DNA from: Asaia bogorensis
Lineage (GTDB): Bacteria; Pseudomonadota; Alphaproteobacteria; Acetobacterales; Acetobacteraceae
Assembly (NCBI GenBank): GCA_945873195.1
Contig: CAMCDA010000004.1
Span: 1,923-65,922 of the forward strand
Length of the DNA: 64,000 nt
Direction: 5' to 3'
Position numbers and translations under genes: made by a program. Numbering within the stretch: position 1 is the first letter of the stretch; the number at the start of each line of letters is the position of its first letter. Below are positions 4,980-29,670 of the stretch, piece by piece. Under the pieces are notes generated by a model, which saw nothing but the letters and a program-made list of their open reading frames with translations, was not told the origin of the DNA and searched no databases.

Positions 4980-5258
4980 TTGGTATCCATGCATAAGGCA
5001 CGCAACATGAAAATCATCACTACGCTCATTCTGGCCGGCACACTCGGCCTCGTCGCCGCCTGTGGATCCAGTGAGCCCGGCCGCGTCCAGGGCGCCGCCG
5101 CGACAGGGGCCGCCACCGGCGCGACGGTCGGTCTGGTTGGCGGTCCCGTGGGCGTCGCCGCGGGGGCCGTGATAGGCGGCGGGGCCGGTGCCATAACCGG
5201 CGCCAGCACCACCCCCGCGCAGGTCGATCTGGGTAAGCCGGTTTGGGACAAGAAGTAA
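4980..5258 (+). CDS. Small glycine-zipper lipoprotein
   Basis: Lipobox LVAAC, then GAAATGAATGATVGLVGGPVGVAAGAVIGGGAG. Confidence 0.8.
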   Translation: MVSMHKARNMKIITTLILAGTLGLVAACGSSEPGRVQGAAATGAATGATVGLVGGPVGVAAGAVIGGGAGAITGASTTPAQVDLGKPVWDKK

Positions 5259-5390
5259 TACCCGGGCCGCAACCACCGTCACGGCGCCGTCCATCCGGGC
5301 GGCCCGTTTCGCTCGAAGCTTGATCATACCATCCGAAATTATATCGGTACGCATTCCCCGACCAACGCCATTGAAGGACACTCAGACATT

Positions 5391-5864
5391 ATGAATGAGG
5401 ACCGGACGACGCGGGCGAAAGTCGCCAAGCCGCACGCGCATTTTGAGGAGCCGGCGGATATCGTCATCGATCCCGCGCTCTCGAAGGACCAGAAGAAGAA
5501 GGCCCTCGATTCAATGGAACAGGATGCGCGCCAATTGCTGGACGCATCCTCGGAAGGCATGACCGGCGGCGAAATGAACAAGCTGCATGAGGTGCTGGAC
5601 GCCAAGGATGCGCTTGAGCTGCCACCGGTCGCCTTTGCCTATGATGTCGTGGTCAAGGATCTGCGTTCCACCTTGCGGACCGATGTCAGCCCGGCGGAAC
5701 GGAGCGATGTCGAACAGGCGCTGAACGCGCTCGACGCCGTGGCACGGGTTGGCGCCATCAAGACCGATCCGCGCGTCGTGACCGCCGAGGACGACGGCCT
5801 GCCACTGCCCGGCTCCGAAGCCGAAATGGACGATGAAATCGCCCGCGAGAAGCTTGATCCCTGA
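5391..5864 (+). CDS. Hypothetical acidic protein
   Basis: 157-aa ORF with coding-like codon use, co-oriented with its neighbours. Confidence 0.7.
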   Translation: MNEDRTTRAKVAKPHAHFEEPADIVIDPALSKDQKKKALDSMEQDARQLLDASSEGMTGGEMNKLHEVLDAKDALELPPVAFAYDVVVKDLRSTLRTDVSPAERSDVEQALNALDAVARVGAIKTDPRVVTAEDDGLPLPGSEAEMDDEIAREKLDP

Positions 5865-18466: not shown

Positions 18467-19992
18467 TGCAGTTGCGCCATCAGGCGGGAGCCATTGATGA
18501 CGATGCGCGCGCCCGCGGCCACACCGTCCACCACCAGGATGGAGGTGCCGTCGATCACGCGGGTTCGCACCGGGTGCGGCACGAAGGTCTCGGCGGCGGT
18601 CTGTTCCCAGACTTCCTCGACGCCCGAACTGCCCTGGGTCACCGCGGACCGGTTCAGGAGGATGCCGCGCTGGCTCTGGCCGGTGTTGACGACGGTCACG
18701 CTGACCGGCCGGCCGACGCTCAGGCCGGCGGGCGGATTTTCGATCCGGTACATGATTGGCGTGGACTGCCGAGCAACCGAGAGGCCGGAGCCGACAAAGC
18801 GCAGGGTCAGGTTGATGCCTTCCGGGGTAGTGGCCGCGGCGACCGGCGTGCCGCGCGCGGCCTCGGCGATCGCGGGATTGGACGCGGTGGCCTCGATCCA
18901 CAGGCGGGTCGGATCGATGACCTCGAACATCACCTCTCCGGGCTGGACGATCCGGCCGTTGACGGCCGATGTCGTGGAGACGATCCCGTCGGTGAGCGCG
19001 CGCAGGGCTTCGCGCAATTCCAGCATCGGCAGCAGGGCATCGCGTTCGCGGCGGAGGCCGGACAGGCGCTGTTCGGCCTGGTAGATCTTGCCTTCGCGGA
19101 ACGGCACCCAGGTGAACTGGCGCAGGATTTCCAGCGCCTCGGTTTCCAGGCGGATGTCGGTGGTCAGGCGGGTGACATCGCGGCGGACCTGGCTGCGATC
19201 GACGACGCCGATGGATGGCGACACCCAGGCAAGCGTCTCGCCCTGCTTCACCGCCTGGCCCAGGGTCGGGAAGCCGGTATCGGGCGGTTCCAGCCGGCCG
19301 GGCACGCTGGGCTGCACCGTGCCGTGCAGCGACGGGTCGGGCACGATCCGGCCCGAGATCTGCCGGACATCCGGGACATCGATCACGCGGGCCTGCTCGG
19401 TGCGGACGTTGAACAGACGTTGCAGCGGTTTGGGCACGAAAAACGACCCGTCTTCCCGCCGGTTGCTGCGGTCGTAGACGAAATTGGCGATCAGGCCGGG
19501 ATCGACCTCATCCTGCGGGCCGATCGGCATGGTGGGGGAGGGCGGGATCGCCGGCTGCTCGGGCATCCGAGCGGCGGCGCGCAACGGTTCCATCACGGGC
19601 GGCGCGGACGCCGGCGTCGCGGCTGGCACGGGGCGTGGGCGAGGCGGCGGTTCGGCGGCGCGGGGCGGCAGGATCGGCGTGGAGTTGACCCCCAGCAGAT
19701 ACGACACCTCCCACAAGAACTGGCCTGTGCCGCCGGGGATATTGGCGATGCCGGTGGCGGTCCAGGCGATCGCGTCCAGCGTCGCGCCCACGGCGGAGCC
19801 CAGATAGGACCCGGTCGCGGCCGGTTTTGGCGGCGGCGGCGCGGGCTGGGCATGGGACCTCAGGGACGGATCTTCCTCCGGCACGCGGTCGGCGATGCTC
19901 CGGTCCTGCAAACCTTGCGCCGGCACGAGGCTGGTGGAGTAGGCGATCACCGCAACCGTCAGCGTGGCCAGGCGCCACGGCGCGCGCATCAT
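18463..19992 (-). CDS. RND periplasmic adaptor (MFP) with a long Pro-rich N-terminal extension
   Basis: ISGRIVPDP...VQPSVPGRL...LGQAVKQGETLA; LRALTDGIV...GRIVQPGEVMFEVIDPTRLWIEA. Confidence 0.9.
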   Translation of the reverse strand: MMRAPWRLATLTVAVIAYSTSLVPAQGLQDRSIADRVPEEDPSLRSHAQPAPPPPKPAATGSYLGSAVGATLDAIAWTATGIANIPGGTGQFLWEVSYLLGVNSTPILPPRAAEPPPRPRPVPAATPASAPPVMEPLRAAARMPEQPAIPPSPTMPIGPQDEVDPGLIANFVYDRSNRREDGSFFVPKPLQRLFNVRTEQARVIDVPDVRQISGRIVPDPSLHGTVQPSVPGRLEPPDTGFPTLGQAVKQGETLAWVSPSIGVVDRSQVRRDVTRLTTDIRLETEALEILRQFTWVPFREGKIYQAEQRLSGLRRERDALLPMLELREALRALTDGIVSTTSAVNGRIVQPGEVMFEVIDPTRLWIEATASNPAIAEAARGTPVAAATTPEGINLTLRFVGSGLSVARQSTPIMYRIENPPAGLSVGRPVSVTVVNTGQSQRGILLNRSAVTQGSSGVEEVWEQTAAETFVPHPVRTRVIDGTSILVVDGVAAGARIVINGSRLMAQLQ

Positions 19993-21086
19993 CGCGTTTC
20001 CGTCCCAGCTGTCTGTCGGGTCGCCTGGGCTTCGGTCACGGCATAGGCCGAGATGGCTTGCGCGGCGCGCGCGGCCTCGGTCCGTTCTCCCGCGCTTTTG
20101 ACCCAGGTTTCCGCCTGGCCGCGCCAGGGCGAATGGGTCAGCAGCGTCGCGACTTCAGCCATCCGCCCTTCGGCCGCCAGCAGCCGCAGCCGTTGCAGGA
20201 AGCTGGCCTGCGGATCATCGGCCCCGCCGAACAGCGCGCGCAGGCGGGACCAGCTTGATCCGTCCTGGCCGAGCGTGGCGGCGATGGATTGGTCGAGCGC
20301 CTCGAAGGCGATGGCGAGGTCGCGGATCGTGGCCACGCCTTCCGGCAGGTCGCGCAGCGTATCGACGGCCAGGGCGATCGGCTCGGGGTAGGGGCCGTTC
20401 AGGTCCATCAGCGCGACGCCCTCGCTCAGCGGCGACCCGGTATCGACATCGCGGCGCAGGCGGGTGGCGGCGGCAAGCAGGGCGGCGGCGCGCACCCGGG
20501 CGGCAAGCACCTGACCCGCGGCCTCGATCTGGGTCATGCGCTGGCCGGCGTCCTGCGCCGCGCGCGCGGCGCCCGCGAGCTCGGTGCGGTTTTCGCGCAC
20601 GGCCGAGCCGGTTTCGATCAGCCGCCGGTCGAGCTGGCGGATATCGAGGCGCAGCCGCAGCATCTCCGACTCGAGGCCGGCGACGCGGGGGATCAGGGCC
20701 GCGACGTCGCGGTCGGTCGGGTTTTCCGGGGTCAGGACCTCGGTCAGCTTGCCGGCGGCGTCAGTGCCCAGGACGGTTGGCGCGTGGGCGACCAGCACCG
20801 GGCGCAGCGACGGGGCGGCCAGCGCGATGCAGGCGGCGGCGAGCGCCACGGTCGCGAACAACCCGCTGGCCCAGGCGCCGCGCGCGCGCTGAGGGGGGGA
20901 GGGAACATCGGTCGCGGGATCGGGAACATCGGTCGCCAAGGGTCGCGCGTGGGTTGCAGGCGCGGGATCGTTATCGTTGCGAGACTCAGGCAGGGGGAGC
21001 GGCGGCGGTTCGGCCCGCGCGCGGTCGCCGCGATCCCGGATCAGAACGTTCAGCCCGCCCGGCAGTGCAACAGGTTCATCGGCCAC
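19989..21086 (-). CDS. Mitofilin/Mic60-like (COG4223-like) TM-coiled-coil protein, copy 1
   Basis: Pro-rich N-terminus, TM, heptad coiled coil, then LRRDVDTGSPL...EGVATIRDLAIAF...W...W..A..R..A pattern; ATGA overlap with the MFP. Confidence 0.65.
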   Translation of the reverse strand: MADEPVALPGGLNVLIRDRGDRARAEPPPLPLPESRNDNDPAPATHARPLATDVPDPATDVPSPPQRARGAWASGLFATVALAAACIALAAPSLRPVLVAHAPTVLGTDAAGKLTEVLTPENPTDRDVAALIPRVAGLESEMLRLRLDIRQLDRRLIETGSAVRENRTELAGAARAAQDAGQRMTQIEAAGQVLAARVRAAALLAAATRLRRDVDTGSPLSEGVALMDLNGPYPEPIALAVDTLRDLPEGVATIRDLAIAFEALDQSIAATLGQDGSSWSRLRALFGGADDPQASFLQRLRLLAAEGRMAEVATLLTHSPWRGQAETWVKSAGERTEAARAAQAISAYAVTEAQATRQTAGTETR

Positions 21087-23603: not shown

Positions 23604-24779
23604 GTGTCCGTTGCACAGACCTGGAAAACGCTCCGTATCTTCGTCAATCGCCGCCTGTCCGCGCGGCGTGGGCGCATCAATCCCTGGCGCGATTGGGCCA
23701 CAAGCGCGGTGGTCCTCGCGATCGGCATCGGTGTCGGGGTGTCGTGTCTGCCGGGACACCCGACGCAGGGCCCCTCGGCCGCCACGCTGATCGATCCGCA
23801 GCCCAATGGCGGCGGCATCGCCCCCGCCGTCTTCGCGCTGCGTGACAGCGGCGCGGCGGTCCGTTTCGCGAATGCCGAGGCCCGGCCGAACGGCCAGATC
23901 CTTGTCGGCTTCTACAACGCCCTCGACCCGCTGCTCGCCACCGCCACCGAACCGGTTCTGCTTCCCGCCGATGCTCGGCTGCTGTGGCTGCTGGCATCAC
24001 CGGGGGAGCGTCAGTCGATCCGCGACCGCGCGGCGGCCCTGGTCGTGGCGCTGTCTTCGGGCGGGCGCGATATCGTCACGTCGCCGGAGTTCGCCGATCA
24101 CTACCGTGACCGTTTCCTGGAGGTGTTTCAGGTTGCCGCCCGTTCGGCCTGGGTGGTGACGCAGGAAAGCGGCGCCTGGCGCGCCTTGCTGCGCGGGCTG
24201 GAACCGGCGATGCGCGACCTCGGTGACCGCGACATCCGCCCGGTGGTCGAACGGCATTTTCGCGTGGTCCCCGGCCGGATGCTGCGCGCCAACGCCTTCG
24301 CGATGCTCGATCCCTTCACCGACCGACCCTGGAACATGACCCCGGTGGAGGACGCGCTGCGGTCCGCGCTGCTTGAACTGCGGGATCGGGAGGTGCCGGA
24401 GCGGATGGTCGCGCATCTGATGGCCTCCCCCCAGGCCGCGACCTTCCTGCGGCTGTATCAGGATGAGTTGGTGCGCCAGCTCGCCCATGATGGCGCGCTG
24501 CAAGGGCTGCTGGCCGAGATGGCCTTTGATGAGCGGTTTCGTCCCTATGCCAACGGCATAGTCGATCGCGCCAACGACCTGGCCCGCTTCGCGCCGCGTC
24601 TGCTGGTCAGCCTGCGCGGCAGCAAGGACCTGAACCTGGTGGCCGCCACCGTCATCCGGGCGACCATCGCCGGGCGGGGGGACCGTGTCGTTGTGTTCAT
24701 GAGCCGATCGCAACGGGATGAGCTGGCGGCGCTGGATCGGTACGCGGTGCAGCCGCTTGAGAGGAAGGGGCGCTCGTGA
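23604..24779 (+). CDS. Hypothetical single-TM/exported helical protein
   Basis: TM SAVVLAIGIGVGVSC; GTGA overlap with the ABC-MlaE gene. Confidence 0.72.
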   Translation: MSVAQTWKTLRIFVNRRLSARRGRINPWRDWATSAVVLAIGIGVGVSCLPGHPTQGPSAATLIDPQPNGGGIAPAVFALRDSGAAVRFANAEARPNGQILVGFYNALDPLLATATEPVLLPADARLLWLLASPGERQSIRDRAAALVVALSSGGRDIVTSPEFADHYRDRFLEVFQVAARSAWVVTQESGAWRALLRGLEPAMRDLGDRDIRPVVERHFRVVPGRMLRANAFAMLDPFTDRPWNMTPVEDALRSALLELRDREVPERMVAHLMASPQAATFLRLYQDELVRQLAHDGALQGLLAEMAFDERFRPYANGIVDRANDLARFAPRLLVSLRGSKDLNLVAATVIRATIAGRGDRVVVFMSRSQRDELAALDRYAVQPLERKGRS

Positions 24780-26323
24780 GCGACAGCCGGATGGCGGCGC
24801 GCGACGGGCTTGTCGCGACGGCGGCGCGCGACGGGCTTGTCGCGACCGGTCTTTCGATCACCCGCCCGGATGGCATTCCCATCCTGCGCGATACCGAGCT
24901 GCGGATCGGCGCGTCCGAGGTCGTGCTGCTGGTCGGCCCCAGCGGCTGCGGCAAATCGACCCTGCTGATGCTGTTGGGCGGGTTGCTGGATCGCGGCAAT
25001 GGCTGGCAGGTATCGGGGCAATTGTCGTGCGGCGACCTGCGGATCGACCTGGCCGAGGAACAGGCCGGCGTCGGCGGCGTGGTGTTCCAGAGCCATGCGC
25101 TGTTCGACGAACTGGATGCCGAGGCCAATCTGCGGATCGCGCGCGACCACGCGGCGGCGAATGTCGCGCCGTCGCTGGCCGCCGCCATGCTGCCGATGCT
25201 GGAGGATATCGACCCGCACCAGGCCGTCAGCGCCAGCAGCGGCGGGCAACGCCAGCGTTTGGCCATCGCGCGCACCGTGCTGACCGACCAACCGGTGCTG
25301 CTGTTCGATGAGCCGAATTCGGGGTTGGACATCATCTCCTCCCGCCGGCTGGTGGAACTGATCCGCGGCCTGTGCCGCACCATGGGCAAGCCGGCGCTGA
25401 TCGCGGTGCATCACGCCTCCGAACTGCTGCCGGTGGCCGATCGCGTGCTGGTGATGGACCCAATCCGCGCCACCTTGACCGAGGTTGCGCCGCGGATCGA
25501 GGCGTTGGAGGCCGGCCTCACCATCGCCACGCGGGCCGATCCGACCGAGGAACGGCCCCGTTCTCGGGGGCGCTGGCGGCTGGGCTCCTCGGCGGCGCCG
25601 AGGAACACGCGGCTGTATTGGTTCACCCATTACGTGCTGGGCTACATGTGGCTGCTCTGCGCGTCGCCGATCATGTTGATGTATATCGCGGCTGGGGCCT
25701 GCATTACCGGGTTTGTCACGATCTGGTTCGGGTTCAACTACTATTCCTATGGTGGATTGCTGAAATCACTGCTGCATGATGAGACCTTGGTGGGGCTGGG
25801 AACGGTGCAGGCGCGGGTGGCGCTGCCCTTGATCACGACGATTCTGTTCGTCGCGCGCAACAGCGCGGTGATCGCGGCGGATGTCGGTAACCGGGCGCTG
25901 ACCGCGCAGTTCCAGGCGATGGACAACCTGGGCATTCCAGGCCGGCTTTATGTGTTTTCGGGGATCATCATCAGCATGGGCGTTGGCTCGGTCGTGCTGA
26001 TCGTGCTGGCGGTGCTGCTGGGCGCCTGGGCCTCGCAGGAAACATGGATGGTACAGTTCCCCAACCAATATCGGGAGTTGTTTCGCAGCCTGTTCTTCCG
26101 TAATGTTATCTCGCCATCCGGTTGGCCGTCCTCGGCGATGGGTTGGGTGGTGGCCAAGGCGGCGATCAGTGGATTGCTGGCCTCGATCACGTCGATCATC
26201 ATCGCGCTGGGGCCCAAATCATCCAGCCTGGCGGTCAGCCGGTCGGTGGCCAACGCGATTGTCGTGGGCGTGATCGTGGCGCTTTTGGTGCATGCGGTGA
26301 TTTCGGCGCTGACAGCGGTCTGA
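24776..26323 (+). CDS. Fused ABC ATPase plus MlaE-like permease
   Basis: GPSGCGKST, SGGQRQRLAIAR, LLFDEPNSGLD; C-terminal LPLITTILFVARNSAVIAADVG...QFQAMDNLGI and AVSRSVANAIV match the MlaE pattern. Confidence 0.82.
   Translation: MSDSRMAARDGLVATAARDGLVATGLSITRPDGIPILRDTELRIGASEVVLLVGPSGCGKSTLLMLLGGLLDRGNGWQVSGQLSCGDLRIDLAEEQAGVGGVVFQSHALFDELDAEANLRIARDHAAANVAPSLAAAMLPMLEDIDPHQAVSASSGGQRQRLAIARTVLTDQPVLLFDEPNSGLDIISSRRLVELIRGLCRTMGKPALIAVHHASELLPVADRVLVMDPIRATLTEVAPRIEALEAGLTIATRADPTEERPRSRGRWRLGSSAAPRNTRLYWFTHYVLGYMWLLCASPIMLMYIAAGACITGFVTIWFGFNYYSYGGLLKSLLHDETLVGLGTVQARVALPLITTILFVARNSAVIAADVGNRALTAQFQAMDNLGIPGRLYVFSGIIISMGVGSVVLIVLAVLLGAWASQETWMVQFPNQYRELFRSLFFRNVISPSGWPSSAMGWVVAKAAISGLLASITSIIIALGPKSSSLAVSRSVANAIVVGVIVALLVHAVISALTAV
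24793..24846 (+). repeat. Perfect 27-bp tandem duplication (AARDGLVAT x2), in frame
   Basis: ggcggcgcgcgacgggcttgtcgcgac at 24793 and 24820. Confidence 0.95.
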
Positions 26324-26378
26324 CCGGACCCTACGATACTTTCACGGCGCGTATATCGGTTCTTGAGGAGTGACAGGC

Positions 26379-27161
26379 ATGGATCGGGATGACCAGGCAC
26401 ATGAGCGCGCGGCGACGATGCGATCGATGAAAATGCTGGCCGGGGCGGCGTTGATCGTCTCGCTGACCGGGCCGCTTTGGGTACCGAACATCCTCGCCAC
26501 TCTGAATTTCCGTTCCTCCGCCGATATCGCCGCCGAACGGAACCGGGACGACATCGTCCGGCTGGAGCAAGGCTCCGTCGGGTCCGAGCAGCGACTGAAG
26601 GCGGCCGAGGCCGCGGTGGCCAAGCTGCGGGAGGACCTGGGCCGCATGGAACAGCGGATGGCGGCGATGCGCGACGCGCTGGCCGCCGGCGCCGCGGCCG
26701 ATCTCGCGGCGGCGCTGCGCTCCGATGGCGGGTTCATGGCGGAACTGGCGGCGTTGCGCGCGGTTGCGACTCCCGCCCCCGATCTGACCGACATGCTGGC
26801 CATGATCACCCCCTTCGCGGAAACCGGGGTGCCGGGCGCGCGTGAAATCCGCCAGCGCTTCCTGCGGGAGATGGCGGGCGCGGGTTCGGCGCAGGGCGGT
26901 TCGCCGTTCGCCTGGCTTCGCCGGACGGTGCTGCTGGCGCCAGATCCGGTGGCTCAGGACGTGAACCCGCATTTGCTGGAAGCCGAGACCCTGCTGCGTG
27001 ACGACGACCTGCTGGGTGCGATGGCCGCGGCCCGCCGGATCGAGGCGCCGCGCCCCGACTGGCTGGGGGCCTGGCTCGCGGATGCCCAGGCGCGGTCCGC
27101 GGCGGATGCGCTATTGCCCCGGCTGGATCGCTGGACGGCCGTCGCCGCGCCCAAGCCATGA
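26379..27161 (+). CDS. Mitofilin/Mic60-like protein, copy 2
   Basis: GAGGAG RBS; TM; coiled coil; LAAALRSDGGFMAELAAL...FAETGVP...LLRDDDLLGAM...WLADAQARSAAD. Confidence 0.75.
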   Translation: MDRDDQAHERAATMRSMKMLAGAALIVSLTGPLWVPNILATLNFRSSADIAAERNRDDIVRLEQGSVGSEQRLKAAEAAVAKLREDLGRMEQRMAAMRDALAAGAAADLAAALRSDGGFMAELAALRAVATPAPDLTDMLAMITPFAETGVPGAREIRQRFLREMAGAGSAQGGSPFAWLRRTVLLAPDPVAQDVNPHLLEAETLLRDDDLLGAMAAARRIEAPRPDWLGAWLADAQARSAADALLPRLDRWTAVAAPKP

Positions 27162-27451
27162 GGCCGCGCCGGACGTTGGCCGGCCTGGCGCTGGGGGTGT
27201 CGCTGTTGGCCGGCGGGCCGGTGTCGGCACAGGTCGTTGTGGAACGCGACGTCATCGTCGTGCGCCAGGGCGGCGTGACCGAGGCGATGATCTCGGCCTG
27301 CGCCGGTGGCGCGGCGATCGGGGCGGTGATCGTCTGGGGCAGCGGGACGGGAGCGGTGTTGCCGACCGCCGGGTTGTTCTGTGGGCTGTCGGTGGCGGCG
27401 ACCATTTCGGCCTCGGTGGCGACTTATGCGTGGCGCTCGCTGCCTTGGTGA
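27158..27451 (+). CDS. Small signal-peptide / Gly-zipper membrane protein (97 aa)
   Basis: ATGA overlap; SACAGGAAIGAVIVWG...AGLFCG. Confidence 0.72.
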   Translation: MRPRRTLAGLALGVSLLAGGPVSAQVVVERDVIVVRQGGVTEAMISACAGGAAIGAVIVWGSGTGAVLPTAGLFCGLSVAATISASVATYAWRSLPW

Positions 27452-27529: not shown

Positions 27530-28216
27530 ATGCACACCGTGATGTTGGCCAAGCAGAAGGGCGGCGTGGGCGCGAGTACCATCGCGCGGGAGATCGGGGT
27601 GCTGGCCGCGCGCAACGGGCAGCGGGTTGTGTTCATCGACCTCGATCCGCAGGCGACTCTGTCGAAATGGTGGAACCGGCGCACGGCTGGCGCGAACGGC
27701 ACGCCGAACCCGGCGCTGGCTGCGGTGAAGCCAGACCAGTTGCTGACCGTGCTGGGGCAGTTGGCCGCCAGCGGCGGGGTGGATCTGGTGGTGATCGACG
27801 TGCCGCCCTCGATCCACAGCTTCATCCGGCGGGTGATGGACGCGGTCGATTTCGTGCTGGTGCCGGTGCGCCCGACCTCCGACGATTTCGAGGCCTTGCC
27901 GGAAATCGTTGAGATGATTGAGCAAGCGGGCCGGCGCTATGCCTTCGTCGTGACCCAGGCGCCGACGGGCCGGCGGATCCGCGCGGTGGATGAGGCGATT
28001 CCGATCCTGGCGCGCCAGGGCCGGGTGGCGGGCGTGCTGCGGTTCCGTTCGGCGTTCCCGGCGGCTGCCTCGGCGGCGCAGGTGACGACCGAGTTTGAAA
28101 CGACTGGCAAGGCCGCCGCCGAAATTCGGGAGCTTTGGGCTTTCGTGAAGGCTGAACTGCGGAAGATTGATCGGGCGGCCGCGGCGGCGGCGCCAGAACT
28201 GGCGAAGGCGTCCTGA
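27530..28216 (+). CDS. ParA-family ATPase with atypical Walker A (KGGVGAST)
   Basis: KQKGGVGASTIA, FIDLDPQA, VIDVPPS, VLVPVRPT; GGGGAAGGGG RBS. Confidence 0.88.
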   Translation: MHTVMLAKQKGGVGASTIAREIGVLAARNGQRVVFIDLDPQATLSKWWNRRTAGANGTPNPALAAVKPDQLLTVLGQLAASGGVDLVVIDVPPSIHSFIRRVMDAVDFVLVPVRPTSDDFEALPEIVEMIEQAGRRYAFVVTQAPTGRRIRAVDEAIPILARQGRVAGVLRFRSAFPAAASAAQVTTEFETTGKAAAEIRELWAFVKAELRKIDRAAAAAAPELAKAS

Positions 28217-28239: not shown

Positions 28240-29670
28240 ATGGCCCGTAAATCGACGGTGAAGCTACCGGACGTGTTCGCCAAGCCCGGTCAGGCGCCGT
28301 CGCGCGGCACGCCGATCGAGGCCCTGCCGCGGGAGGGGGAACCGGAGCCGTCGGCGGCTGAACCCGTGCCTGCTTCGGCGGTTGCGGAGCCGGGTCCCGT
28401 GGCCAGCGCGGCGCCGGTCACCGGTGATGATTCACCGGCGTCCTGGGCGCTGGCATCTCGGCCGGCCCTGGTTGCCGGCGGGCCTGATCGCGGCCAGCCG
28501 CCCGTTGTCCCGCCGCGTCATGTCGTCGTGCCGGAAGCTGCCACCCCCGACGTGCCGGCATCGGAGTCCCCCCTGCCGAACCCTGTGAGCGGTTCGGCGG
28601 CCTCGGCTGATGCCGTGCCGACTCCGCCGGAAGCCGCCCCGGTTGCCGAGGCCTCCCCCGTTGGAGAGACCCCAAGCGCGCTGCCCCCCATTATCGCGGC
28701 ACCTACCGCCGCCCCGCTGGCGAGGCCCGTGGTTCCCCCGGCGGTCGTCGCTCCGCCTGTCCCGCCAGCGCCCACATCGACGGTTCCATCGGCGGTCCCC
28801 CCGACGGTCCCCCTGGCGGCCCCATCAACGCCCCCACCGTCCATGTCCCCGCCCGCAACGCCCTCGCGTCCGGCGCACGCCGAACCGCCGCGCCCCGCCG
28901 TCACCCTGCCATCTCCGCGCGGGCCAGCCTGGACCATCGCCATGCTCGCCCTCGGGGTCAGCCTGACGACCCCGTTCTGGTATGACGGCGCCCTCCGCCT
29001 CCTCGGCCTCACCACCACGGTCGGCCAGGCCCAGCAGGAAGACGCGCTCGCCATCTCGCGGCAGGAGCGCAAGCTCCGCGACGTCGAGCAGCGCCTGACC
29101 ACGACCGCGACCCAATTGACCAGGGCACAGGCCGACCTGACGCAGGCCGTCCGCAAGCAGGAGGAAACCGCGGCCTGGACCCGCGTCATGATCCTGGCCC
29201 GCCTCGGGGAAGCCTTGCGGCGCGGCACACCCTTCGGGCCCGAACTCGCGATGGCGCGCGGGGCGAGGGCCGCGACCGGTGACCTGACGCCGTTGCTGGA
29301 CCGGTTCGCGCCCTACGCGCCGATCGGCGTGCCGACCACCCAGGACCTCGGTCAGGATTTCCGCCGGGTCACCGACCCTGTGCTGCGGCCGGCCCGTGGG
29401 CTCAATCCCCTGGCCTGGGCCGCGACGGTCATCGCCTGGACCCCCTTCGGCCGGCCCGCGCCCGAGACCGACCCAGGCCGTCTGGCCCTGCGAGAGGCCG
29501 CGAGCCGCGTGCGCGACGGCGCCGTCACCGATGCGGCGACGATGCTGCGCCCCGTCACCGGCCCGGTCGCGGACCTGATGGCCGGCTGGCTCGCCGATGC
29601 CGACGCCCGGGCGGCGGCGGATGCGTTCAATCAGCGCATCGACGCCCTCCTGCGCGCCGGCCCCCGCTGA
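28240..29670 (+). CDS. Mitofilin/Mic60-like protein, copy 3, with a ~220-aa Pro/Ala-rich N-terminal region
   Basis: TM (WTIAMLALGVSLTTPFW), coiled coil, LGEALRRGTPFGPEL...GVPTTQDL...F...WLADADARAAAD. Confidence 0.78.
   Translation: MARKSTVKLPDVFAKPGQAPSRGTPIEALPREGEPEPSAAEPVPASAVAEPGPVASAAPVTGDDSPASWALASRPALVAGGPDRGQPPVVPPRHVVVPEAATPDVPASESPLPNPVSGSAASADAVPTPPEAAPVAEASPVGETPSALPPIIAAPTAAPLARPVVPPAVVAPPVPPAPTSTVPSAVPPTVPLAAPSTPPPSMSPPATPSRPAHAEPPRPAVTLPSPRGPAWTIAMLALGVSLTTPFWYDGALRLLGLTTTVGQAQQEDALAISRQERKLRDVEQRLTTTATQLTRAQADLTQAVRKQEETAAWTRVMILARLGEALRRGTPFGPELAMARGARAATGDLTPLLDRFAPYAPIGVPTTQDLGQDFRRVTDPVLRPARGLNPLAWAATVIAWTPFGRPAPETDPGRLALREAASRVRDGAVTDAATMLRPVTGPVADLMAGWLADADARAAADAFNQRIDALLRAGPR

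Follow-up and report, generated by a model that had tools for sequence, protein, structure and literature searches.

No residue of P-loop NTPases is better conserved than the Lys of the GK[ST] motif, and mutating it is the standard textbook means of inactivating ParA, Soj, and MinD. For the partition pair ParF–ParG, it was shown that the tail of ParG binds ParF at the dimer cleft, where an arginine-finger-like motif stimulates hydrolysis, and that Asp111 of ParF contacts the ribose and belongs both to the nucleotide pocket and to the cleft that takes up the ParG tail (PMC7308502). McdA, the type 1 carboxysome-positioning ParA found in cyanobacteria, has lost the signature Lys and uses K151 instead (PMC6582323). 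TadZ of E. rectale is reported to have lost both lysines and to keep its ATPase activity by means of a Lys of an adjacent helix (PMC10482377, citing Xu 2012). The cellulose-synthase regulator BcsQ (G8VRGGVGTTT), which has no P-loop Lys either, binds ATP as a sandwich dimer (PMC8892547). Here, a ParA ATPase is described that carries Ala at the GK[ST] Lys position. It is encoded on a stretch of 64,000 nucleotides of Asaia bogorensis DNA (GenBank assembly GCA_945873195.1, contig CAMCDA010000004.1, positions 1,923 to 65,922 of the forward strand), called the window in the following, to which all plain coordinates refer. With moderate confidence, we read it as a ParF-like ParA of a rare monophyletic clade whose P-loop has been rewired, combining the Ala with a fixed Lys at position −2 (Lys8 of the window protein), and which would represent a chromosomal positioning derivative.

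The parA gene runs from an ATG at 27530 to a TGA at 28216 on the plus strand and has a GGAAGG-like ribosome-binding site a few bases 5' of its start; the protein begins MHTVMLAKQKGGVGASTIARE. It consists of a single domain without an N-terminal helix-turn-helix domain. Pfam assigns it to AAA_31 (57.5 bits, cut-off 27), CbiA (47.9, cut-off 25.4), and MipZ (39.8, cut-off 20.7), and the NCBIfam model ParA_partition (NF041546) covers its full length at 127.7 bits, which is under the curated equivalog cut-off of 180. The AlphaFold2 (AF2) model, calculated with 42 homologues as input, reaches a pLDDT of 90.5 and a pTM of 0.88. It matches ParF, Soj, and MinD at a probability of 1.00, the best matches in the PDB being ParF structures (4E07: TM score 0.77/0.85, root-mean-square deviation 2.5 Å). 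In this model, strand β1 comprises residues 2 to 6 and helix α1 starts at residue 15, so that K8 lies just past β1, at the mouth of the P-loop. The codons AAG GGC GGC GTG GGC GCG AGT ACC at 27557–27580 encode K10-G-G-V-G-A15-S16-T17, herein the GCG of A15 takes positions 27572–27574. In HMMER alignments to solved structures, qkggvgast pairs without gaps with qkggvgktt of Thermus Soj and with pkggsgktt of TP228 ParF; A15 occupies the canonical Walker A Lys position, which is K15 in ParF. An earlier note on this DNA had described a natural Lys-to-Ala substitution in the Walker A motif of a protein with intact signature Lys and DxDPQ/DxPP motifs that is otherwise ParA-like and lacks a CpaE receiver-like domain. 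The present analysis agrees with this description in each respect: the substitution aligns with the Lys of Soj and ParF, K10, D37, D39, and D90 (VVIDVPP) are present, and the protein is an intact single-domain ParA of 228 residues.

The same note had remarked that a Lys in the orthologues would make the Ala a strain-specific decay mutation or a sequencing error, and had suggested aligning them. The orthologues are Ala-type throughout the clade, so there is no strain-specific lesion. The 120 closest homologues in a collection of 5.8 billion proteins (53–100% identity) all lack the P-loop Lys. Their motifs read KGG[VASC]GA[ST]T or, rarely, KGGSAATT or KGGAGSTT, the residue in question being Ala and very rarely Ser. 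Few of these homologues carry names, and those that do are Acetobacteraceae; the window protein is identical to the representative of a 15-member sequence cluster. Ala is likewise conserved in a library of representatives at 50% identity, where Ala-type sequences are the top matches down to ~30–47% identity and GK[ST] sequences follow beyond, and in 13 loci from species-representative genomes. The codons vary at the synonymous position: across 20 distinct Ala-type P-loop DNA stretches, the Ala is encoded by GCG (11), GCC (7), or GCA (2), and the Lys codons are AAG (17) and AAA (3). Decay or sequencing error has practically no probability as an explanation, being excluded by the Ala of homologues down to ~30% identity, by the synonymous codons, by the two base changes that separate AAR from GCN, and by the intact open reading frame (ORF); what speaks for it is only that this Lys is expected beforehand in any P-loop NTPase.

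The second hallmark of these proteins is a Lys at −2. Every Ala-type sequence follows the motif K-x-K-G-G-x-G-A-[ST]-T with K at this position (K-[QELRY]-K-G-G). Of ~196 Lys-type relatives, not one shows it. All 13 Ala-type loci of the species-representative genomes have it and none of their 65 Lys-type loci does; in the 50%-identity library, 124 of 124 Lys-type relatives carry S, T, N, or A instead. According to a preprint surveying the ParA clade, the −2 position is normally a conserved Asn or Ser (10.64898/2026.10.19.760177), so that the Lys has taken the place of a residue under constraint of its own. When columns 8 and 15 were masked for the tree, the 24 Ala-type sequences came out as one clade (Shimodaira–Hasegawa-like support 0.93) nested in Lys-type ParF-like ParAs. 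Because the Ala-type sequences are monophyletic, both changes arose a single time and have stayed coupled ever since. On this comparative evidence, Ala15 and the Lys at −2 are both under purifying selection; the change from Lys to Ala is genuine and old, defines the clade, and goes together with a fixed Lys at −2. A literature search for the Lys-to-Ala motif yielded no paper that mentions it, and the available part of the survey preprint mentions a KGGVGR variant and no Lys-to-Ala clade (10.64898/2026.10.19.760177).

The residues of the two groups were compared in an alignment of 155 sequences. K8 is found in 100% of the Ala group and 0% of the Lys group, R20 in 100% versus 18% elsewhere, E21 in 100% versus 2%, H96 in 96% versus 6%, and D118 in 96% versus 18%. 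In addition, PNP is present in 88–100% of the Ala clade, and T116 is also group-specific. Position 16 of the clade is Ser or Thr with rare exceptions. K10, G11, G12, T17, D37, D39, and D90 are conserved at ~100% in the Ala and Lys groups alike. This pattern bears on the view, voiced in the earlier note, that the protein is a low-turnover scaffold or static landmark. Hydrolysis would then be lost or nearly so, and a nucleotide-locked or nucleotide-free ParA would anchor a membrane partner in the manner of TadZ/CpaE or BcsRQ. The missing canonical Lys fits such a pseudo-ATPase, as does the ParA_partition score below its cut-off, and TadZ-type landmarks are also without the lysines. The invariance of K10, T17, D37, D39, and D90 across a clade that diverges to ~30% identity speaks against it, since conserved water-activating and Mg-binding Asp residues are unexpected in a dead enzyme (BcsQ has Cys at the catalytic Asp), and so does the new invariant Lys beside the P-loop.

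The group-specific residues could also be taken to mean that the pocket has been altered for another ligand or cofactor geometry, such as a nucleotide other than ATP or a monovalent cation that stands in for the Lys amine, which would turn the protein into a switch of altered specificity instead of a usual ATPase. R20, E21, H96, D118 beside the ribose-contacting D119, and the PNP insertion line the presumed pocket. An ATP-Mg site is nevertheless what the glycines of the P-loop, the Thr that binds Mg, and the Asp residues of Walker A' and Walker B make up, the closest structural matches of the model are ParF bound to an ATP analogue, and positive evidence for another ligand is lacking. We regard this alternative as quite improbable.

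The deep branches of the clade show in which context the variant P-loop is found outside the chromosomal subclade of the window. Each of the deep members P0101, P0136, P0140, P0154, L058, L065, L066, L069, and L086 is followed by a short ORF of ~100–130 residues. The proteins downstream of P0136, P0140, and P0154 (100–123 residues) each match Pfam Antitox_RHH, and the ORFs of the remaining deep members read like ribbon–helix–helix (RHH) proteins. P0101, on a draft contig of Acidisoma silvae (57% identity, KGGVGATT), is followed by a 125-residue RHH-like protein and has RepA_C, a TraG-type coupling protein, and a MobA relaxase nearby; RepA_C is also found near P0140, which makes two such cases. 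The same pairing of ParA and RHH protein occurs on contigs of Roseomonas populi CN29 and Acetobacter lambici/pomorum. Two independent plasmid-type loci from different organisms share the perfect palindrome AGCGTCCTAGGACGCT just 5' of parA: in L015, it is part of a perfect palindrome of 56 bp (5228–5283), and in L058, it lies at 5620–5643. A related repeat is present in L021 (2812–2855). The palindrome is a candidate operator or centromere for the RHH partners.

The deep-branch loci look like ordinary type Ib par cassettes. This is hard to reconcile with an ATPase that is unable to run a nucleotide cycle, and it tells against the pseudo-ATPase. Judged from these contexts, the variant P-loop most likely still supports a nucleotide cycle. 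Among Lys-type relatives, two contigs of Kiloniellales metagenome-assembled genomes (MAGs), L067 and L068, were found to encode ParF-like ParAs of 33% identity that are followed by proteins of ~420 residues starting MSQRSAAAASTGLFARKG; here, a type Ib ParA may have come to be paired independently with a large partner other than an RHH protein.

The window ParA itself belongs to a subclade (support 0.996) whose orthologues lie on large chromosomal contigs of 0.5–3.6 Mb. Wherever the sequence extends downstream of parA, the next gene in this subclade encodes a protein like that at 28240–29670. In the window, this partner is a membrane protein without an RHH domain, a point that would suit a static landmark, since its partner is then not a centromere-binding protein. 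Ten partner proteins, 42–92% identical overall, were aligned. Of their first 30 residues, 21 do not vary, R22 among them (MARK...LPDVFA.PG.AP.RGT.IE.LP). Behind this tail come ~200 residues that are rich in Pro and Ala and hypervariable in length and sequence; linker length varies widely among orthologues, and the partner proteins range from 348 to 561 residues. The AF2 model of the window partner shows residues 1–223 disordered, a helix of residues 229–254, then a helix of 70 residues, and a confident helical bundle of residues 333–473. The tail resembles the N termini of the RHH partners of plasmid-type relatives, which read 'LLVRPGAAPTRSTPVEDLP', 'MAKPGQPASIGRGPELP', and 'MARKPVLP...'. The simplest reading of these alignments is a domain replacement, in which the tail would have been kept and the DNA-binding RHH domain exchanged for a membrane protein. 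Upstream of the window parA, the palindrome AGCGTCCTAGGACGCT is absent, and apart from one direct repeat of 9 nt no operator or centromere repeats were found; the lack of an operator-like palindrome is consistent with the loss of the DNA-binding RHH domain. The invariant Arg of the tail weighs against a pseudo-ATPase as well, since the ATPase-stimulating tail of ParG has such a residue (PMC7308502).

Two partner orthologues stand out by their sequence. The linker of the same-genus orthologue in L002 (2–1417, minus strand) contains near-perfect repeats of the (A/S)P(P/S)VV type in a long series. In L014 (8830–9856, on a chromosomal contig of 768 kb), the partner appears to be split into overlapping ORFs of 314 and 143 residues in different frames, which could be a frameshift or an assembly error.

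The C-terminal domain of the partner was compared with Mic60. An hhalign comparison of profiles from 12 partner-family members and 28 Acetobacteraceae Mic60 C termini gave a probability of 94.9% (E 4.7e-8). The match spans 117 columns, among them those of the ...AGWLADA.AR... end, and the controls, one reversed and five column-shuffled profiles, remained at ≤0.2%. The partner has no match to Mitofilin (PF09731) or anything else in Pfam even at E 10, its AF2 model finds nothing in the PDB by Foldseek at E below 1, and BLASTP yields no significant match to the Mic60 that the genome itself encodes. The C terminus is thus likely, although not proven, to be remotely homologous to the mitofilin domain. 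The canonical Mic60 of the genome (G000:C18:3862-5259, loci L020/L023) has 466 residues with many LEQ/LEK coiled-coil repeats, scores 26.3 bits on PF09731, just below the cut-off of 27.4, and lies directly upstream of a 447-residue ORF that reads like a HemY-type tetratricopeptide repeat protein. Another ORF of the window (19989–21086, minus strand) was considered as mitofilin-like and rejected at an hhalign probability of 12.9% and without significance in BLASTP.

Taken together, the conserved hallmark of the clade, the new Lys at −2, and the par cassettes make the window ParA look rewired rather than broken. In the preferred reading, that of a rewired positioning ATPase, ParA would bind ATP and form a nucleotide-sandwich dimer through K10. 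K8 would give the phosphate-contacting charge in place of A15, possibly helped by R20, H96, or an Arg of the partner. In P-loops at large, the amine of the canonical Lys comes close to the main chain of the residues with which the loop begins; hence, a Lys reaching in from −2 appears sterically plausible once residue 15 is Ala. The N-terminal tail of the partner with its R22 would trigger hydrolysis and thereby switch ParA off, and the Mic60-like domain would lie in the periplasm if the tail is cytoplasmic. Most likely, ParA would position or space the partner membrane protein along the cell or relative to the nucleoid, rather than segregate DNA. The same positioned assembly may include a tail-less partner paralogue and an ABC–MlaE transporter where a genome encodes these just upstream. 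A more far-reaching version is put forward tentatively: a 'with-no-lysine' P-loop in which the amine has been relocated to the −2 Lys, the cycle perhaps depends strictly on the Arg of the partner, and the motor positions a Mic60-like protein linked to a lipid transporter of the MlaE type. The relocated catalytic Lys of WNK kinases and the relocation of the signature Lys in McdA are analogues of such an arrangement.

Several points weigh against the rewired positioning ATPase. The pairing of Ala with K(−2) goes back to a single evolutionary event and amounts to joint constraint, not to replicated compensation. The reach of K8 to the β- and γ-phosphates is drawn from general geometry and a ligand-free model, and the real compensator could be R20, H96, or an Arg of the partner, or there could be none. 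The Ala-type clade is known from sequences, contexts, and models. The assignment of the deep members to plasmids relies on draft contigs and gene content. In a tblastn search of the complete plasmids in PLSDB, 117 records were matched, all below 60% identity, and no Ala-type ParA was found; the best match inspected is a Rhodovastum plasmid with a Lys-type protein (43% identity, TPKGGSGKST). The chromosomal subclade, moreover, may by now serve a function different from that of the plasmid members. Finally, the BcsQ variant T15K is stable and dimerisation-competent but catalytically inactive (PMC8892547), so that Lys-less relatives can be specialised slow or regulated ATPases, which is nearer to a static landmark; BcsQ, also Lys-less, is held as an ATP-bound, hydrolysis-inhibited sandwich dimer in a cytosolic complex (PMC8892547). 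Against the invariant K8, the other clade-specific residues, the intact catalytic residues, the par cassettes, and the precedents of Lys-less ATPases, the static landmark inferred in the earlier note finds little support, and we consider a pseudo-ATPase unlikely, albeit the most serious of the rivals to the rewired positioning ATPase.

The features of the window ParA, its partner, and the genes upstream are listed in Table 1.

Table 1. Features of the parA locus in the window, with the basis of each assignment (TM, transmembrane).
Feature	Position	Strand	Basis or remark
ParF-like (type Ib) ParA ATPase, 228 aa, Ala-type Walker A	27530..28216	+	Pfam, NCBIfam, AF2 model
Variant P-loop K8-Q-K10-G-G-V-G-A15-S-T17	27551..27580	+	K8 clade-specific (−2); K10 signature Lys; A15 at canonical Walker A Lys site
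R20-E21 pair, helix α1, clade-specific	27587..27592	+	Invariant in Ala clade
Walker A' DLDPQ (D37, D39), retained	27638..27652	+	Invariant in Ala-type and Lys-type groups
Insertion ANGTPNP (residues 55–61) ending P59-N60-P61, clade-specific	27692..27712	+	Gap columns in 96–98% of Lys-type relatives
Walker B VVID90VPPSIH96	27788..27817	+	D90 retained; S94, H96 clade-specific
T116-S-D118-D119, start of helix α5	27875..27886	+	D119 equivalent to ParF D111; T116, D118 clade-specific
Partner gene, 476 aa, 23 nt 3' of parA	28240..29670	+	Tail, Pro-rich disordered linker, TM helix, coiled coil, Mic60-like helical domain
Partner conserved N-terminal tail MARKSTVKLPDVFAKPGQAPSRGTPIEALP, putative ParA-binding/-activating peptide with invariant R22	28240..28329	+	Alignment of partners
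Partner predicted TM helix, residues 229–254	28924..29001	+	AF2/DSSP helix; SLTTPFW motif conserved
Partner C-terminal helical domain, residues 333–473, remote likeness to alphaproteobacterial Mic60	29236..29658	+	hhalign
391-aa protein without family match, first gene of conserved cluster	23604..24779	+	58–74% identical, syntenic in four loci
ABC ATPase–MlaE permease single-chain fusion	24776..26323	+	Pfam ABC_tran and MlaE; syntenic in L053, L054, L055, L057
Tail-less partner paralogue, 263 aa: TM, coiled coil, same C-terminal domain	26370..27161	+	Syntenic in L002, L053, L054, L055, L057
97-aa signal-peptide/membrane ORF between paralogue and parA	27158..27451	+	Similar ORF in same-genus L002

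Upstream of parA, the order of 391-residue protein, ABC–MlaE fusion, tail-less paralogue, ParA, and partner is common to the window and the loci L053, L054, L055, and L057, whose ParAs are 66–91% identical and one of which lies on a contig of 1.3 Mb. In L054 and L055, a relative of a DUF2061-containing gene comes next on the opposite strand. The tail-less paralogue is 31% identical to the partner over 232 residues (BLASTP, E 3e-15) and lacks both the tail and the linker. Apart from the window, the 97-residue ORF was recognised in L002 alone, and an MCE/MlaD domain was not detected in the neighbours scanned. In L013, L014, L017, and L056, the ParA–partner pair stands alone in unrelated neighbourhoods. 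It is therefore the pair that forms the unit; the transporter cluster often goes with it but is not obligatory. The cluster that the earlier note had mentioned is thus borne out in part, by the gene order of the four related loci, but the pair also occurs without it.

An orthologue of the window ParA is present in 2 of 25 genomes of the window's genus. Among 301 species genomes of the Acetobacteraceae, at least 4, in 3 of 143 genera, match at E ≤ 1e-40; this count is a lower bound, as only a portion of the candidates of each genome was scored. When 401 alphaproteobacterial genomes were scanned with a DNA pattern that encodes K-x-K-G-G-x-G-A-[ST]-T, the genome of the window was the sole match, and the same pattern gave 12 matches in IMG/VR, none of which is a ParA. 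By these searches, the Ala-type clade is rare and so far found almost only in Acetobacteraceae. Contigs L054 and L061, which carry the Acetobacteraceae-type cluster or ParA (74–79% identity), are filed as MAGs of Nitrosovibrio sp. and uncultured Bifidobacterium sp.; this filing is probably binning contamination and would not name the true hosts. The window's genome also contains a second ParA-like frame (G000:C256:3118-3744) with 34% identity to the window ParA and an in-frame TAG, which is possibly a pseudogene.

If the rewired positioning ATPase holds true, a Mic60-like membrane-organising protein would be a new class of ParA cargo, which would extend the list of such cargoes and give a handle on bacterial Mic60-like proteins. 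The clade would then demonstrate how a plasmid ParA/ParG module is converted to a chromosomal system, its adaptor keeping only the ATPase-binding tail, fused to a Mic60-like protein. It would further be an experiment of nature that tells which part of the P-loop can be spared and in what way its charge can be re-sited. Annotators who meet the motif K-x-K-G-G-x-G-A-[ST]-T should not label the gene degenerate, since such genes look functional.

Compared with the described systems, the window ParA is most similar to ParF–ParG of plasmid TP228. ParF is the best match in the PDB by sequence and by fold, both are small single-domain ParAs of ~200–230 residues, and the P-loop numbering is the same (N8, K10, and K15 in ParF). 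Plasmid-type members of the clade share with ParF–ParG the small RHH partner with a flexible N-terminal tail. ParF, however, has K15 and an Asn at −2, where the clade has A15 and K8, along with R20, E21, H96, D118, and the PNP insertion; unlike ParG, the partner in the window is devoid of an RHH domain, and the upstream region yielded no operator or centromere repeats. Relative to alphaproteobacterial Mic60, this partner also has a TM helix, a long coiled coil, and a C-terminal helical domain with the ...AGWLADA.AR... end. In contrast to Mic60, its TM helix follows an extra, presumably cytoplasmic N terminus of ~225 residues with the putative ParA-binding tail, and its locus is not the hem locus, in which the canonical copy of the genome sits.

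The other systems resemble the clade in the handling of the P-loop. McdA is likewise a natural ParA-family ATPase short of one hallmark P-loop Lys that uses a Lys from elsewhere, and its cargo, which is not DNA, is positioned by way of an adaptor that carries an N-terminal peptide (PMC6582323). McdA kept the universal GK[ST] Lys and lost the signature Lys, whereas the Ala-type clade did the reverse; the substitute Lys of McdA is in a distant helix, whereas that proposed here from the sequences would be two residues upstream. The comparison with TadZ/CpaE made in the earlier note is fair: these pilus-localisation ATPases of the ParA/MinD superfamily naturally lack Walker A lysines and retain ATP binding or ATPase activity, the loss of both lysines in E. 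rectale TadZ being reported with reference to Xu 2012 (PMC10482377). TadZ has an N-terminal receiver-like domain and belongs to tad loci; the window ParA is a single domain without tad genes nearby, and NCBIfam CpaE_hom_Actino gives it only a local match of 38 bits. BcsQ is a SIMIBI protein of the ParA/MinD type that does without the P-loop Lys and works with a membrane machine. Its model TIGR03371 is the second-best NCBIfam match of the window ParA at 60.4 bits, far below the cut-off of 157.85; no bcs genes lie in the ParA neighbourhood. In BcsQ, the signature Lys is replaced by Arg, the catalytic Asp by Cys, and there is no Lys at −2, whereas the window ParA keeps K10 and the Asp. A conserved substitution of the second Walker A Lys is also found in the KGGVGR AAA ATPases (NF047398; the ConB2 immune ParA clade). 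NF047398 scores the window ParA weakly, at 21.7 bits with a cut-off of 90, and the KGGVGR variant keeps the charge in place as Arg, where the clade has Ala and a new Lys elsewhere. Seen against these systems, the Ala-type clade is a variant within the known ParA systems rather than a new kind of system.

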